Shown: positions 27,180 through 32,133, numbered from the stretch's first letter. The stretch: 64,000 bases of DNA from an uncultured Methanobrevibacter sp. (GCF_902770715.1 NZ_CACXTS010000018.1:2666-66665); one strand, 5' to 3'. A program made the numbers and translations. The notes: generated by a model from the letters alone, not told the origin.

Positions 27180-27473
27180 ATGAGTAAACAAAACGATGAG
27201 CTTTTGAAATTAACCTCATATGTACTAATCTCCAAATATAGAGAAAAGACTTTGAAATCCATTGGAGATGAAGTTAAAATACCAACAAACATCGCAAAAG
27301 ACAGTGGAATTAGGACTAATCATATTTCAAAAGTTCTTAGCGAATTGAAAAGTAAAGAGATTGTTGAATGTATTAATGAAGAAGCTCGTAAAGGAAGGTT
27401 ATACAGATTGACCGATACTGGAAAAGAAGTATTGGAAACCATTAAAGAGAAAGAGGAAAAAGATATTGATTAA
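27180..27473 (+). CDS. Winged-helix (MarR/ArsR-like) transcriptional regulator
   Basis: PTNIAKDSG...HISKVLSELK...GRLYRLTDTG. Confidence 0.85.
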   Translation: MSKQNDELLKLTSYVLISKYREKTLKSIGDEVKIPTNIAKDSGIRTNHISKVLSELKSKEIVECINEEARKGRLYRLTDTGKEVLETIKEKEEKDID

Positions 27474-28456
27474 TTACTTTCAATACCCTCTTTTATTAAT
27501 TCTAGTTCTTCCCTATTTTCTGGGCCTGACGATTCTTTTAAAACATCATACATCATTTTTAAAATAATACTATTTTTAACATTTAATGGGAAACATTCAC
27601 TTGTTTCAATATAAATTGAATCATAACTTGGAGACTTCAAATCCATCTTATATTGTAGCTTTATTTCTTGCCTTAATCCTTCATCAATGTATTTTTCAAG
27701 ATAAACAATGATTTCATTAGCGAAATTGTTTCCAAACATCATCATAGTATTGATTGAATCTTTGTCCAAATTTGTTTGCTTAACCAATTCGTTGAATGAA
27801 CCGTAATTCTGATATCCGTATGGTATAAATCTGCCTTCGACGGTATGTGCACAGTATTCATTCATTATTTTGAATTCATGCAAAGTTAAAAAATACCAGA
27901 CAAAACTTTGCAAGGTTGTTGATGTGTTGACCTTGAAAATATCGCATAACAATGATTCAACTATGCTGAATAAAAGATAATGGGCCAGTTCATGAATGAC
28001 AGTTGCAATTTGAACCGAATCATCGAGCCTGTCATCATAATAAATGCAATTTCCTAAAAATACGAATCCCCTTTCCGGACCTCTTGCCTTAGGTTTGCAG
28101 GGGGTAAATATCTCAGCTAAATTGAAGATTTTCTCTTTTACGGAATCCCCATAAACATAAACATATTCCGCTCTTAAAAACAAATTGGACAATAGCTCAT
28201 TGTACTTTTCATCACTTATTTCGGCATTCAGTAATAGATTTTCATTAAATTCACTGAACAAAACGTCAAAATCATCTATGGAGAGGGGATTGATCTGCTT
28301 TAAACATTTGATGCAGTGGGTAGCATAATCAAGATTAACTTCACCACAGAAAGGACAAATATGCTCTGTTATGAATTTATTGCCGCAATGAGTGCAATAA
28401 TTATTTTCTTTGAGATTTAAAGTACCGCAAATGTCACATGTTTTCAATTGAATCAC
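27470..28456 (-). CDS. Double zinc-ribbon + HEXXH metallopeptidase (IrrE/ImmA-like)
   Basis: CDIC..CTHC and CPFC..CIKC; IATVIHELAHY; downstream MNEYCAHTVE. Confidence 0.7.
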   Translation of the reverse strand: MIQLKTCDICGTLNLKENNYCTHCGNKFITEHICPFCGEVNLDYATHCIKCLKQINPLSIDDFDVLFSEFNENLLLNAEISDEKYNELLSNLFLRAEYVYVYGDSVKEKIFNLAEIFTPCKPKARGPERGFVFLGNCIYYDDRLDDSVQIATVIHELAHYLLFSIVESLLCDIFKVNTSTTLQSFVWYFLTLHEFKIMNEYCAHTVEGRFIPYGYQNYGSFNELVKQTNLDKDSINTMMMFGNNFANEIIVYLEKYIDEGLRQEIKLQYKMDLKSPSYDSIYIETSECFPLNVKNSIILKMMYDVLKESSGPENREELELIKEGIESN

Positions 28457-29341: not shown

Positions 29342-31621
29342 TCACTTTTTAGATAAAGATTGAACTTCCTCTACAACTTTGTATAAAACTTCTTCTCCAA
29401 GCCCTTCAATATATTTAATGGACCCCGCACATTCATGGCCTCCTCCGTCAATGCCTGCTTGAGGAACCCTTTCAATCATGGTAGTTACAATCTCGTTTAC
29501 ATTGAAACCGTATTGCTCATTGACAGCGTCGGTTGCTCTGAATACTCCAAAATCAGGACCATGGCCCAATGTTACAATCGGTTTATCCTCGCCCAATTCT
29601 TTAATTATCCTATCATGGACAAAACCGCAGGTTTTACCTGGAGCAGGGAATGTGAATTTATGTGCGTATTTTTCAACATCGATAAGATTGAAGTAAATTC
29701 CGTTTTCAAGTTGGGTTCTTTTAATGTTCGGAAGAGCTGCTTTAAGTTGAGTATCGACACGTCTTTGATATTCCTTATATAAAGCATCAATCATTTTAGG
29801 ATGTTTATCCAAGTTATCTACAGCTAAAATGGTGTCCATTATTCCTCTACCATTCATAAATCTTAAGAAATAAGCTTCAAAATCGACACATTCAGCCACT
29901 TTTGCCAAATGTTCTCTGCTAAATCCTTTTTCTTCTGCAAGTTTTAAATATTGATAGACCTCACCGCATTCAGCACGGTCTCCCAATGCAGCAATTGCTG
30001 GCAAATGCTTAATTAAATCTTTTACATTAGGGTTTATGAGATGTGCAACTTCTGTTGCAAGACATCCTGCAGTTAACTGTGAATCTCCTCCAACCAAATA
30101 TGGATTGACATGTGTGTCAACATATTCATCAACTGCAACTGTGGCTCCATATATTTCGCCATCCCTTTCATCTTTTGTTAATAAGTCGCCAGGTGAATGG
30201 TGGTCTATTACAACCACTTCAATATCATAAATTTTGGCCTGCATTAATGCAACTATATCCTCTTCAGTGGATCCGTTGTCTAAAAGTACAATAAGAGGTA
30301 ATTTCTGGCCATGCCTTTCCTGGTCCTCAAGAGCGAATGACAAATCCTTAACAACATCTTCCAATTCATAAAACGGAGCTTTACTTGGAGACCTTTTGAA
30401 ATAATAATATTGAGCATCATTGCTTGGATTTTCCTTTTCTATTAATGGAATAATTGCTTTTTCCATTGCAACTCCAGAACAGATTCCATCAGCATCATTA
30501 TGATGTCTAATTAATATAGTCCTGCCATCGAGTATTGCTCTTCTAATCTTTTGTGCAGCCTCTCTCATTTTTGGTTTAAGTCTGTTTAAAACATCACTTT
30601 TGACCAAGAAATCAACATGTTGTGGTTCGGCTTTCTTATTTAATGCATCGTCAATTAATTTATGTAGCTTGATGGAGTTTTCCTGACTAAGCTTTATCAT
30701 TGAAGATGACTCAATCTGTGTTTTTCCACCATGTTCGTTGACTTCACCTATAACCTGAACCGCATCTCCAAGTTCTATTTCAGGATATGACCTCTCGCCA
30801 GCCTTATCAAAAGCTGCAATTTCAGCGGTTCCGCTTTCATCACTAATTATGAATATTGTAGGGCCTGAAGTCTGTTGAATTTGCTGCACTTCACCATCAA
30901 TTCTAACAATTTTTCCCTTTTTCTCTTCAAGCTTATTGATTAGGGTTCTTGGAACTGAAATTGTCATTCTCTTAAGGTTATACTCTTCAACATGAGCCGG
31001 TGCAAAATCAATCTTTCCTTCTCTTGATTTGATTGAGGTTATGAATACGATAATCTCATCACCGACATGATAATGGTCAACTTCACCTCTCATCAGTCCC
31101 CATACATTATTGTTCAATGAAACAAAAGCACCATAGCGTTCTATTCTTGTAATTTTTCCCCTGTATAATCTATCCTTATCAATATCTTTCATTTGACACA
31201 TTGAATCTAAAACGTATACATCGCGGGCAGCTCTACGGCGAGCTTCAAACTCATCATGTTTCATTTTTTCAACCTTCCTTTTCTCCTTGCAGTCCTCACA
31301 CAAATCATGTTCTTCGCTGAGTAGCTTGCCGCAATCTCTGCAAACATTGATTTGACCTGTTCCATGACATTGAGGGCATTCCTCAAAAACTTCGACTTGC
31401 CCTTTACCATTGCATGCTTCACATGGAATATCCTCTTCACCGCCTAGGTCAAATTTTGCCCGGGCATTGCTGTTAACACCTTTAAAATGATTTCCTATAT
31501 CGAAAGCATCTTCTTCAAAACCAGTTCCTCCACAGGCTTCGCATTCCTTATAGTCCACTACAACTGATCCTATTCCTTTACATTTTGGACATTTAGTCTT
31601 CAATTTAAAACCCCTTATCAA
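29342..31621 (-). CDS. Archaeal RecJ-like DHH exonuclease with DnaJ-type Zn finger, S1 and OB domains (COG1107 type)
   Basis: CxxCxGxG repeats; S1 domain (RIERYGAFVSL); HHNDADG, DNGS, DHH, GGGH motifs. True start may be TTG at 31603. Confidence 0.9.
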   Translation of the reverse strand: MIRGFKLKTKCPKCKGIGSVVVDYKECEACGGTGFEEDAFDIGNHFKGVNSNARAKFDLGGEEDIPCEACNGKGQVEVFEECPQCHGTGQINVCRDCGKLLSEEHDLCEDCKEKRKVEKMKHDEFEARRRAARDVYVLDSMCQMKDIDKDRLYRGKITRIERYGAFVSLNNNVWGLMRGEVDHYHVGDEIIVFITSIKSREGKIDFAPAHVEEYNLKRMTISVPRTLINKLEEKKGKIVRIDGEVQQIQQTSGPTIFIISDESGTAEIAAFDKAGERSYPEIELGDAVQVIGEVNEHGGKTQIESSSMIKLSQENSIKLHKLIDDALNKKAEPQHVDFLVKSDVLNRLKPKMREAAQKIRRAILDGRTILIRHHNDADGICSGVAMEKAIIPLIEKENPSNDAQYYYFKRSPSKAPFYELEDVVKDLSFALEDQERHGQKLPLIVLLDNGSTEEDIVALMQAKIYDIEVVVIDHHSPGDLLTKDERDGEIYGATVAVDEYVDTHVNPYLVGGDSQLTAGCLATEVAHLINPNVKDLIKHLPAIAALGDRAECGEVYQYLKLAEEKGFSREHLAKVAECVDFEAYFLRFMNGRGIMDTILAVDNLDKHPKMIDALYKEYQRRVDTQLKAALPNIKRTQLENGIYFNLIDVEKYAHKFTFPAPGKTCGFVHDRIIKELGEDKPIVTLGHGPDFGVFRATDAVNEQYGFNVNEIVTTMIERVPQAGIDGGGHECAGSIKYIEGLGEEVLYKVVEEVQSLSKK

Positions 31622-32133
31622 AATAATGAATTTCCCTTAAATAATTTTGGATTTTCTTTAACTAATGTATCACGCTGATCTTGATACTTAGTTGCTTCAT
31701 AAATTAAATCATTTGCCTCTGAAGCATAATTTGTTCCAGTATAATTTGAATTAACTTCAAAACAATCTATTGACTCTTTTAATTTATCAACGGCCTGGAG
31801 CTTTAACTCCAATTCACGAATGACAGTATCAATATACTCATCTTGAATATCGTTTACATCAGATGAAAAATTATTCTTAATATCATTTAGCTTATCCAAA
31901 CTATCATTGTAATTATTGCCTGCAGATATCGCCTTATTCCTTGATTCATCGAAACTTCTACTGTTCACTAAAATAACGGCTTCATTATAATCATTGTCAC
32001 CATTAACAATTGAATCGCTAATATCTGGCATGGTTTTATTTATACTGTCTACTGAACTGTCAATCAGCACGACCGCTGCCGAAATAATCAGTAAAACTGC
32101 AACAAAAATTATTAATTTGCTATAACTAGACAC
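31618..32133 (-). CDS. Secreted/membrane helical hypothetical protein
   Basis: N-terminal hydrophobic helix; helical acidic body. Confidence 0.7.
   Translation of the reverse strand: MSSYSKLIIFVAVLLIISAAVVLIDSSVDSINKTMPDISDSIVNGDNDYNEAVILVNSRSFDESRNKAISAGNNYNDSLDKLNDIKNNFSSDVNDIQDEYIDTVIRELELKLQAVDKLKESIDCFEVNSNYTGTNYASEANDLIYEATKYQDQRDTLVKENPKLFKGNSLF

Follow-up and report, generated by a model that had tools for sequence, protein, structure and literature searches.

An apparently composite gene cluster in Methanobrevibacter: a HAN operon followed by a putative zinc-ribbon HEXXH peptidase and a candidate winged-helix partner

Judged from its sequence and synteny, the gene cluster at positions 27180-32133 of the window (the whole stretch of DNA analyzed, 64,000 nt from an uncultured Methanobrevibacter sp., GCF_902770715.1 NZ_CACXTS010000018.1:2666-66665) is a composite, in which an old sec171-HAN pair is followed, in Methanobrevibacter only, by a genus-specific block placed behind HAN. 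One protein of this block, ZnHEXXH328, is by sequence comparison the founder of a so far undescribed HEXXH family whose members carry a double zinc ribbon. As the favored explanation, we tentatively consider it plausible that ZnHEXXH328 and wHTH97, a small winged-helix protein encoded against it, form a switch made of a protease and its DNA-binding partner.

An old nuclease pair and the block behind it

The first gene of the minus-strand unit, sec171 (31618-32133), encodes 171 amino acids that, as read from the ORF and its translation, comprise an N-terminal membrane anchor or signal followed by a helical part; it has no Pfam or NCBIfam match. Its stop overlaps the TTG start (TTGA) of HAN, a RecJ-like DHH protein of 759 amino acids (29342-31621, minus strand) recognized by translation, Pfam, and NCBIfam. 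A gap of 13 nt (29329-29341) leads to Zn7_291 (28453-29328, minus strand; 291 amino acids, with seven zinc ribbons by translation and Pfam), whose stop overlaps the start of ZnHEXXH328 in the sequence GTGA (28453-28456). ZnHEXXH328 (27470-28456, minus strand; 328 amino acids), a double-ribbon HELAH protein characterized from models and alignments, is a putative zinc metallopeptidase, and its stop shares TTAA (27470-27473) with the stop of the convergent gene wHTH97 (27180-27473, plus strand; 97 amino acids). A promoter region at 27042-27179 then separates wHTH97 from the divergent ZnTM209 (26412-27041, minus strand), which encodes a zinc-ribbon membrane protein. After checking ORFs, translations, and junctions, we found the gene list, 13-nt gap, GTGA overlap, and 4-nt stop overlap given in the initial annotation to be correct in every structural detail. 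Across 64 orthologous loci, HAN and Zn7_291 are 1 to 26 nt apart, Zn7_291 and ZnHEXXH328 lie at -9 to +3 nt, and the tail-to-tail distance between ZnHEXXH328 and wHTH97 amounts to -4 nt in 31 loci and does not exceed 9 nt in 58; the tight packing is therefore not peculiar to the source genome. Zn7_291 and ZnHEXXH328 are likely cotranscribed and translationally coupled.

The RecJ-like gene is, by all sequence comparisons, an ordinary HAN (Hef-associated nuclease). Pfam detects DnaJ_CXXCXGXG, S1, tRNA_anti-codon, and DHH, corresponding to a DnaJ-type zinc finger, an S1-like domain, an OB fold, and DHH/DHHA1, and the translation carries VIDHHSP (DHH motif) and DGGGHE (GGGH motif). This DnaJ-Zf/S1-like/OB/DHH-DHHA1 layout is the one published for HAN (PMC6158738), and the protein shares the full architecture and both motifs with PfuHAN (PF0399) and TkoHAN (PMC6158738, PMC5717133). 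It matches the NCBIfam HAN_nuclease model (NF053577) with an E value of 1.5e-212 over profile positions 2 to 603 of 612; the score of 707.4 bits lies below the equivalog cutoff of 840 bits, as for a full-length but divergent orthologue. HAN is present in a single copy in every genome searched. The sec171-HAN pair, usually preceded by a desulfoferrodoxin gene, is conserved across Methanobacteriales, with a sec171 homologue detectable upstream of HAN in 7 of the 11 other genera. In all 11 of these genera the operon ends at HAN, with no Zn7_291- or ZnHEXXH328-type genes downstream. Next to PfuHAN and TkoHAN there is nothing notable about the protein itself, whereas the zinc-ribbon and HEXXH genes downstream occur only in Methanobrevibacter. 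Even within this genus, one species (G020) carries HAN and the Zn7_291-ZnHEXXH328 block on different contigs. We read sec171-HAN as a long-established gene arrangement of Methanobacteriales that serves an ordinary 3'-5' repair exonuclease, and the link of HAN to ZnHEXXH328 seems to be a chance outcome of gene order in one genus rather than a DNA damage sensor.

The arrangement of Zn7_291, ZnHEXXH328, wHTH97, and ZnTM209 is found in the rumen and gut methanogens of Methanobrevibacter only. All orthologous loci with room for it keep the order of a 12-gene block that runs from IscS to PsmA, and because this whole block is conserved, gene order within the genus tells little of function by itself. 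The order is kept in 64 Methanobrevibacter loci, but the Zn7_291-ZnHEXXH328 block is missing behind HAN in the other genera and unlinked from it in G020. Zn7_291, known only from Methanobrevibacter and adjoining the HEXXH gene, combines a CKKC..CSKC ribbon with six CxC..CxxC units (Pfam DZR, E 4e-22; Zn_Ribbon_1, E 6e-21) and has no catalytic domain. ZnTM209, identified by Pfam (Zn_Ribbon_1, E 6e-7) and synteny, consists of an N-terminal zinc ribbon, one transmembrane helix, a Ser-rich linker, and an extracellular C-terminal domain; a homologue with 48% identity adjoins a HEXXH paralogue in L092.

The ZnHEXXH family and its nearest relatives

The ZnHEXXH328 family is distributed in Methanobrevibacter and Methanosphaera only. 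ZnHEXXH328 begins with the double zinc ribbon (residues 1 to 55), followed by a helical linker, a core at about residues 100 to 275, and a helical C-terminal part. AlphaFold models of the whole protein (pLDDT 87) and of the core (pLDDT 93.7) depict the core as a three-strand sheet, the HEXXH helix, and following helices. The helix at 145 to 173, preceded by the sheet, bears H154-E155-x-x-H158, the putative zinc-binding and catalytic motif, encoded as HELAH at 27983-27997 (minus strand; residues 154 to 158). The H-E-x-x-H motif is invariant in alignments of 19 and of 26 orthologues and paralogues, as is a downstream Glu; the family's invariant residues are C33, C36, C47, C50, D140, D141, R142, H154, E155, H158, and E199. 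Zinc ribbons are present in every family member, and inspection of the sequence and models of ZnHEXXH328 revealed no transmembrane segment.

HMM, profile-profile, and fold comparisons all point, at sub-significant levels, to IrrE/PprI/ImmA (M78) as the nearest, remote relatives. ZnHEXXH328 scores 17.1 bits (E 0.005) against Peptidase_M78 (PF06114), below the curated cutoff of 22 bits and over profile positions 18 to 56 only. A weak match of this kind is found in 17 of 19 family members (best E 1.4e-5), and one paralogue (G001:C16) exceeds the cutoff with 23.5 bits. By hhalign, the family aligns with canonical Methanobrevibacter M78 proteins over the HEXXH segment at a probability of 87%, but the alignment stops short of the M78 third-ligand Glu and is not extended by deleting a putative inserted helix. 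In M78 peptidases an E-x-x-A-N motif supplies this ligand, a Glu located about 25 residues past HEXXH. The candidate in ZnHEXXH328 is instead the invariant E199-x-x-A202-H203, 41 residues past H158 and beyond an extra helix that M78 proteins lack, and the N-terminal double ribbon and a different C-terminal domain likewise set the protein apart. Foldseek ranks PprI (8slm) first with the whole-protein model (E 0.047, probability 0.84) as well as with the core model (E 0.021, probability 0.96) and also lists IrrE (3dte) and an XRE-M78 protein (6cyj), with TM-scores of 0.2 to 0.35 and no match at E <= 1e-3. The earlier description of an IrrE/ImmA-like protease is therefore borne out as to the nearest family by Pfam, hhalign, and Foldseek, although every match to this protein is sub-significant. 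Membership in SprT/WLM was rejected, as a SprT-like Pfam match, at E 0.16, was confined to 2 of the 19 members, and no SprT or WLM structures were among the Foldseek PDB matches.

DNA-binding partners of the peptidases

wHTH97 matches Pfam HTH_45 (PF14947) over residues 25 to 93 with 28.6 bits against a cutoff of 25.5; an XRE-type repressor was rejected in favor of this HTH_45-type winged helix, and Penicillinase_R was absent among its Pfam hits. It belongs to a multicopy family (8 copies in the source genome, up to 12 elsewhere) and evolves slowly, being 84 to 97% identical across the genus, versus 41 to 85% for ZnHEXXH328. A 15-species alignment together with pattern and inverted-repeat searches revealed two conserved palindromes about 20 to 55 nt upstream of its start, TATAAAA-TG-TTTTATA at 27138-27155 and ATAAC-N2-xTTAT; the same searches found no copy of the promoter palindrome upstream of the sec171-HAN unit. 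Paralogues of wHTH97 are also divergent from membrane/zinc-ribbon protein operons (G000 C35 and C12; L135, L138, and L144), and other family members have provirus, restriction-modification, or membrane-protein genes as neighbors, without a peptidase close by.

The ZnHEXXH family, in turn, is always tied to DNA-binding modules, be it a convergent winged-helix protein, a convergent SAP-domain protein, or a fusion to HsdR or McrB-N/Mrr-N. Among 11 paralogue loci, the partner gene is convergent with overlapping 3' ends in 10 and codirectional in 1; in 9 it encodes a full-length Zn-ribbon and SAP-domain protein, and in the other 2 either a truncated homologue or a protein with the Zn ribbon only, with the SAP domain confirmed by Pfam in 4 of 4 partners scanned. 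HsdR_N, SWI2/SNF2, and T1R_D3 are fused C-terminally in P0138, P0146, P0160, and the source genome (G000:C21:10597-14100), and further paralogues are joined to McrB_N and the winged-helix Mrr_N domain. HAN, the seven-ribbon protein, and an adjacent winged-helix gene are absent from all 13 paralogue loci.

A second, unrelated zinc-ribbon peptidase shows a comparable pairing. This M48 peptidase, which carries a double zinc ribbon at its C terminus, has a wHTH97-family gene behind it at -16 to +79 nt in 34 of 51 genomes; the source genome lacks this pair. These M48-linked winged-helix genes form one clade in the wHTH97 family tree (bootstrap 100), and the M48 pairing therefore arose separately from the HEXXH pairing. 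The double ribbons of the M48 and ZnHEXXH proteins are a shared module (34% identity; hhalign probability 97.6%). HExxH and a zinc ribbon are combined in only 4 of about 2,040 source-genome ORFs, namely the M48 peptidase and three ZnHEXXH proteins, and a rough estimate puts two independent pairings by chance at the order of 1e-3. No M48-wHTH pair or ZnHEXXH paralogue locus has a nuclease neighbor.

A tentative switch and its rivals

In the switch we favor, ZnHEXXH328 would be an active soluble zinc metallopeptidase that its zinc ribbons recruit to nucleic acid or to the partner, and it would proteolytically control wHTH97, in analogy to ImmA/ImmR, IrrE/DdrO, CapP/CapH, or BlaR1/BlaI. As their 3' ends converge and overlap, the two genes may in addition interfere with each other's transcription. 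HAN-generated ssDNA is a possible trigger, the one argument for it being adjacency in a single genus. That the protease inactivates the winged-helix regulator, as first proposed, gains from the SAP pairs of the paralogues, the HsdR and McrB-N/Mrr-N fusions, and the M48-wHTH pairs, but the partner is neither XRE-type nor in the protease operon. Against a switch, the partner is convergent rather than co-operonic and evolves far more slowly than the protease; each pairing may also go back to one ancestral event and have been inherited since. The sub-significance of all M78 comparisons, the wHTH97-family members that have no peptidase near them, the palindromes shared with the divergent ZnTM209, and the missing M48-wHTH pair in the source genome likewise speak against it.

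ImmA/ImmR, IrrE(PprI)/DdrO, and CapP/CapH (Peptidase_M78, COG2856) likewise place a soluble HEXXH zinc peptidase beside a small DNA-binding protein. In M78 systems an XRE-type HTH partner is adjacent or fused, usually in the same operon. Here, by contrast, the partner is a winged-helix (HTH_45-like) or SAP protein, and the genes are convergent with overlapping stops; canonical codirectional XRE+M78(+PIN) cassettes occur separately in other Methanobrevibacter genomes. In BlaR1/BlaI and MecR1/MecI, an M56 sensor protease cleaves a winged-helix repressor, so that again a HEXXH metalloprotease is paired with a small winged-helix protein. The blaR1-blaI order (protease first, repressor downstream, same strand) is matched by the M48-DZR and wHTH paralogue pair, M48 being the family nearest to M56. 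Unlike BlaR1, however, ZnHEXXH328 and the M48-DZR protein are soluble, without a transmembrane sensor or penicillin-binding domain. A BlaR1/BlaI-type switch was rejected, there being no membrane M56 sensor-protease and, in contrast to BlaI, no Penicillinase_R repressor.

It is also conceivable, if on balance somewhat unlikely, that ZnHEXXH328 and wHTH97 are mere neighbors: wHTH97 would be an ordinary small autoregulator of itself and the divergent ZnTM209 (perhaps of other genes), the tail-to-tail contact would be inherited compact packing, and the substrates of ZnHEXXH328 would be unrelated. The syntenic 12-gene block, which makes order alone uninformative, is compatible with this, and so are the slow divergence of wHTH97 relative to the protease, the 13 paralogue loci without an adjacent wHTH gene, the wHTH97 paralogues divergent from membrane/zinc-ribbon operons, and the palindromes between wHTH97 and ZnTM209, as divergent genes with palindromes between them are the usual regulator-target layout. 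Coincidental proximity fits poorly, however, with the wHTH family having been paired twice, independently, with two of the genome's only four HExxH and zinc-ribbon proteins, and with HEXXH paralogues that overlap tail-to-tail with a SAP protein or are fused to winged-helix Mrr_N.

Improbable in our view is that the ribbons tether the HEXXH domain to DNA for removal of stalled or cross-linked proteins, clearing stalled forks in the HAN operon and acting in cis in the HsdR and McrB-N/Mrr-N fusions. SprT/Spartan/Wss1 share with this idea a HEXXH protease whose zinc-binding DNA-tethering modules direct it to DNA-bound proteins, and the HsdR fusion recalls restriction alleviation, in which ClpXP degrades HsdR in proteolytic control of type I restriction. 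Likely cotranscription with HAN, a nuclease connected with the repair of stalled forks and MMS damage, speaks for such a role, as do ribbons throughout the family, fusions to a DNA translocase/nuclease and to modified-DNA readers, and the binding of ssDNA by the best fold match, PprI (PMC10904395). With SprT/WLM, though, there is no significant sequence or fold similarity, leaving a functional analogy with a negligible SprT-like Pfam signal; HAN linkage is seen in a single genus, where one species lacks it, and the recurrent dedicated DNA-binding partner genes and the M48-wHTH pair would go unexplained. Less probable still is the full model of the initial annotation, an archaeal IrrE/DdrO-like response in which ssDNA or oxidative damage, generated or sensed by HAN together with the zinc-ribbon proteins, leads the protease to inactivate wHTH97. 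Its nuclease-coupled damage sensing is not supported, as the block is missing behind HAN in 11 genera and unlinked in G020, HAN is absent at the 13 paralogue loci, neither the paralogues nor the M48-wHTH pairs adjoin a nuclease gene, and the wHTH97-promoter palindrome was not found upstream of sec171-HAN. In its favor are the tight packing with HAN, the upstream desulfoferrodoxin gene, and the M78-like core, along with the activation of the M78 peptidases PprI and CapP by ssDNA (PMC10904395, PMC13228613), a property that fits the zinc ribbons and DNA-linked contexts of the ZnHEXXH family.

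Composition of the HAN locus

Every structural claim made for this region in the initial annotation is borne out by the listed ORFs and by the junction sequences themselves. The minus strand of this Methanobrevibacter genome carries sec171, which the ORF listing places at 31618-32133 and which encodes a membrane-anchored helical protein; a RecJ-like DHH nuclease gene (29342-31621), whose TTG start overlaps the sec171 stop; Zn7_291 (28453-29328), a seven-zinc-ribbon gene separated from the nuclease gene by 13 nt; and ZnHEXXH328 (27470-28456), whose product has two ribbons and a HELAH motif at residues 154-158. 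Zn7_291 and ZnHEXXH328 meet in a GTGA overlap, and the TTAA at 27470-27473 contains the stops of both ZnHEXXH328 and the convergent plus-strand gene wHTH97 (27180-27473), which encodes a 97-aa winged-helix protein. An Rfam scan found no RNA families within 24000-35000.

The 759-aa nuclease is HAN, the Hef-associated nuclease. It spans the whole NCBIfam profile with an E value of 1.5e-212, yet falls under the equivalog cut-off; Pfam recognizes DnaJ-type zinc finger, S1, OB, and DHH domains, and the DHH and GGGH motifs are present in the translation. The HAN described in the literature, a trimer with 3'-5' exonuclease activity and an implied role in repair, has this same architecture (PMC6158738). 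The protein is an ordinary HAN, and its neighborhood here should not be taken for a conserved repair-signaling operon. According to Pfam, Zn7_291 is composed wholly of zinc ribbons. The wHTH97 protein scores above the Pfam HTH_45 cut-off and has no match among PDB sequences.

All orthologous loci with room for it keep the order IscS-IscU-Dfx (desulfoferrodoxin)-sec171-HAN-Zn7-ZnHEXXH, the opposite-strand wHTH, and then ZnTM209 (a zinc-ribbon membrane protein)-Rpp30-Rpp14-PsmA, and the spacing across the HAN-ZnHEXXH-wHTH portion is tight. Because the whole 12-gene block is frozen, gene order argues only weakly for function. In 11 other Methanobacteriales genera, Dfx is usually kept upstream of HAN and sec171 often is, being detectable in seven of them at 26-37% identity (L117-L128); sec171-HAN is the truly conserved association of this nuclease. 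The genes 3' of HAN in these genera are unrelated to those found here (endonuclease III-like, small GTPase, EPSP synthase, valyl-tRNA synthetase, and others) and convergent in several, and no zinc-ribbon, HEXXH, or wHTH gene follows HAN in any of the 11. The Zn7-ZnHEXXH-wHTH-ZnTM209 group is intact in one Methanobrevibacter species (G020) whose HAN gene is on a separate contig. Highly identical wHTH97 orthologues are likewise limited to Methanobrevibacter. The locus is a composite of an old sec171-HAN pair and a genus-specific four-gene block, which removes the main support for a nuclease-coupled sensor.

The ZnHEXXH family and its relation to M78

ZnHEXXH328 has no curated family in Pfam or NCBIfam; its profile matches are to zinc ribbons and, around the HEXXH helix, to Peptidase_M78 (ImmA/IrrE; 17.1 bits against a threshold of 22). 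In an alignment of 19 orthologues and paralogues, the second-ribbon residues C33, C36, C47, and C50 are invariant, as are D140-D141-R142, H154-E155-x-x-H158, and E199. Pfam M78 matches 17 of the 19 weakly, with one paralogue above the cut-off. Confident AlphaFold models (pLDDT 87 over the full length and 93.7 over residues 100-275) predict a zincin-like core in which a three-strand sheet accompanies a long HEXXH helix and additional helices. When these models were compared with the PDB using Foldseek, PprI (8slm) ranked top for both (probability 0.84 and 0.96), followed by an XRE-M78 protein (6cyj), selecase, and IrrE, at a best E value of 0.02 and TM scores of 0.2-0.35. Matches in the BFVD viral fold library were weak (IrrE-like, "peptidase," lethal-factor-like, SprT-like) and none was significant, and a sequence-profile search of the PDB gave zinc-ribbon matches only (DZANK1, eL40, bL32), with none for the HEXXH part.

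We aligned the family profile with seven canonical Methanobrevibacter M78 proteins using hhalign, which gave a probability of 87% over 74 columns and stopped short of the M78 third-ligand Glu. Deleting a putative inserted helix, in five variants, never carried the alignment to the M78 E-x-x-A-(N/H) motif and lowered the probability to about 82%, so equivalence with that motif stays putative. The initial annotation had called ZnHEXXH328 an IrrE/ImmA-like protease. This label is upheld in part: M78 is consistently the nearest known family by Pfam, hhalign, and Foldseek, but the Pfam match here is sub-threshold, the best Foldseek E value is high, and the profile-profile alignment leaves out the third ligand. 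Membership in M78 is not established, and we treat the family as undescribed and remotely M78-like.

An exhaustive profile search places the size of the family at about 90-140 clusters at 50% identity. In a scan of species-representative genomes, confirmed HEXXH loci belong to Methanobrevibacter apart from one Methanosphaera MAG, two unclassified Methanobacteriaceae MAGs, and two contigs of a "Bacteroidaceae" MAG; no homologue of the domain was found in four other genera sampled. The two contigs labeled "Bacteroidaceae bacterium" carry Methanobrevibacter-like genes, one (L078) with the IscS-to-ZnHEXXH synteny and the other (L094) with a cassette of a HEXXH paralogue and its SAP partner, and are almost certainly mis-binned methanogen contigs.

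DNA-binding partners of HEXXH proteins

The window's genome has two ZnHEXXH328 paralogues. One is the C-terminal domain of a 1167-aa type I restriction R subunit (PADLOC REase_I, E value 9e-77) encoded outside the window (G000:C21:10597-14100, equivalent to L025:2598-6101), in which HsdR_N, SWI2/SNF2, and T1R_D3 domains are joined to a C-terminal zinc ribbon and HEXXH. Next comes a gene whose 700-aa product has a type I specificity domain, and no separate methylase was recognized at this locus. The same fusion occurs in database relatives, and other proteins join HEXXH to McrB_N and the winged-helix Mrr_N. A widespread class of paralogues of about 312-328 aa has a recurrent partner gene in 11 loci (L092-L105, e.g., L092:8049-10549). 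In 10 of these the two genes converge and their 3' ends overlap (-4 to -29 nt); in the eleventh they are co-directional. Nine loci encode a full-length partner of 357-598 aa that combines zinc ribbon(s) and a SAP DNA-binding domain with a "GLFSK..KLKELTGG" motif at the N terminus; the remaining two encode a truncated homologue or a Zn-ribbon-only protein. Pfam matched SAP in all four partners scanned (E values 1e-8 to 1e-10). This partner has no family annotation, and neither NCBIfam nor PADLOC holds a family for it, ZnHEXXH328, or Zn7_291. HAN, Zn7, or an adjacent wHTH was found in none of 13 HEXXH paralogue loci. The HEXXH domain is consistently accompanied, in cis or in trans, by a DNA-binding partner rather than by a nuclease.

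The wHTH97 family has eight copies in the window's genome and up to 12 in others, in mostly varied contexts that include provirus tail and collagen-like genes, restriction-modification genes, and positions divergent from membrane/zinc-ribbon operons. At L129 and L130 (G073) and L143 (G059), paralogues lie directly 3' of collagen-repeat/phage-tail-tip genes or within dense small-gene provirus-like regions, settings which indicate that part of the family is virus-borne. In a conserved locus (G000:C12:57249-60693, L135, L138, L144), a wHTH paralogue is divergent from an operon encoding a small membrane protein, a 184-aa "MLVRNLDFLSIPKEF" protein, a double-ribbon and SHOCT protein, and a multi-ribbon membrane protein.

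A single arrangement is found repeatedly: an M48 peptidase bearing a double zinc ribbon at its C terminus (M48-DZR; Pfam M48 E value 8e-32) and, spaced -16 to +79 nt from it on the same strand, a downstream wHTH gene whose product is 46-67% identical to wHTH97. This pair is present in 34 of 51 Methanobrevibacter genomes examined (e.g., L132:3439-4711 in the YE315-like G073; L148-L197) and absent from the more divergent species and from the window's genome, whose M48 (G000:C9:32984-33937) is truncated and has no downstream wHTH. In the family tree, M48-linked wHTH genes form one clade (bootstrap 100), apart from the very short-branched wHTH97 orthologues. The double ribbons of M48 and ZnHEXXH are alike (hhalign probability 97.6%, 34% identity). 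The layout resembles BlaR1/BlaI but lacks a membrane sensor. We dropped an argument based on co-loss of the second M48 ribbon and the downstream wHTH: of the truncated M48 genes, five in all, two retain the wHTH and three have none intact.

Possible roles of the ZnHEXXH328/wHTH97 pair

ImmA, IrrE/PprI, CapP, and BlaR1 act on their repressors, and in BlaR1/BlaI a winged-helix repressor is cut by a HEXXH protease. By analogy, the reading we favor, though only tentatively, is that ZnHEXXH328 is a soluble zinc metallopeptidase acting, in response to some signal, on wHTH97, the DNA-binding protein encoded against it. Gene anatomy, distribution, domain fusions, recurrent partners, and an M78-like core are established here; peptidase activity, substrate, and signal are all putative. 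Its zinc ribbons would serve in recruitment or sensing, and the overlapping convergent transcripts may add interference. M78/XRE pairs, of which PprI and CapP are ssDNA-activated (PMC10904395, PMC13228613), and BlaR1/BlaI are closest in logic, and the present pair differs from them in fold periphery, zinc ribbons, partner class, gene orientation, and restriction-enzyme fusions. Counting against a protease/repressor pair, genuine Methanobrevibacter XRE and M78 cassettes are co-directional in the classical manner, which this pair is not. Such cassettes in other genomes (L107-L110) encode an XRE-HTH (about 110 aa), an M78 (about 240 aa), and a PIN-like protein (about 180 aa) on one strand; they are sporadic, absent from the window's genome, and probably carried on mobile elements.

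It is also possible, though doubtful, that the two genes are mere neighbors and that wHTH97 regulates ZnTM209, from which it is divergent. Conserved palindromes (TATAAAA-TG-TTTTATA and an ATAAC-N2-(G)TTAT-like element) lie 20-55 nt 5' of the wHTH97 start (27075-27155), as is typical where an autoregulator also controls a divergently transcribed gene, and wHTH97 is far more conserved than ZnHEXXH328. Elsewhere in the window, the pattern matches an unrelated Cys-regulon operator and, in degenerate form, a site near the ZnTM209 promoter. On the other side stands the M48-DZR context. Among about 2040 ORFs in the window's genome, 22 contain HExxH and only four combine it with a zinc ribbon, namely the M48 peptidase and three ZnHEXXH proteins; two independent pairings of the wHTH family with this class are unlikely to arise by chance (rough estimate, of the order of 1e-3). 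The initial annotation's full HAN-coupled damage switch is the least probable reading, and we consider it very unlikely: the block is syntenic within Methanobrevibacter, but HAN lacks these neighbors in 11 other genera and is unlinked in G020, and a search of the window found no copy of the wHTH97-promoter palindrome 5' of the sec171-HAN unit. A DNA-tethered protease that clears DNA-bound proteins, perhaps alongside HAN, we regard as improbable. A defense-island origin was rejected as the principal explanation for the core locus, whose copy is present universally, once per genome, and in synteny with housekeeping genes; only ZnHEXXH paralogues occur in restriction or provirus-like contexts.

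These elements might be joined in a broader and distinctly speculative reading, which we also think improbable as a whole. Zinc-ribbon HEXXH proteins would be DNA-tethered proteases cutting DNA-bound partners in trans (wHTH97, the SAP protein) or in cis (HsdR, McrB-N/Mrr-N) and, together with M48-DZR/wHTH, would provide protease-based derepression and restriction alleviation in Methanobrevibacter, possibly fired by ssDNA such as that made by HAN.

Methanobrevibacter dominates methane production in ruminants and the human gut, and to our knowledge next to nothing is known of its gene regulation when it meets invading DNA or stress. Should HEXXH/winged-helix pairs prove to be switches under protease control, they would give archaea their first equivalents of ImmA/ImmR, IrrE/DdrO, and BlaR1/BlaI, assembled from different parts, i.e., zinc ribbons and non-XRE partners; a derepression/restriction-alleviation system, if real, would have no described precedent in methanogens. 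The restriction fusions of HEXXH, which involve both type I and type IV components, suggest that methanogen defense includes a control or effector layer yet to be explored. In the Methanosphaera stadtmanae MAG (L106:6463-8693), genes for an 840-aa Hsp70-like protein and a metallophosphatase-like protein lie upstream of one for a 467-aa protein combining a TPR-like N terminus with a HEXXH domain, a setting that may represent a conflict-system context.
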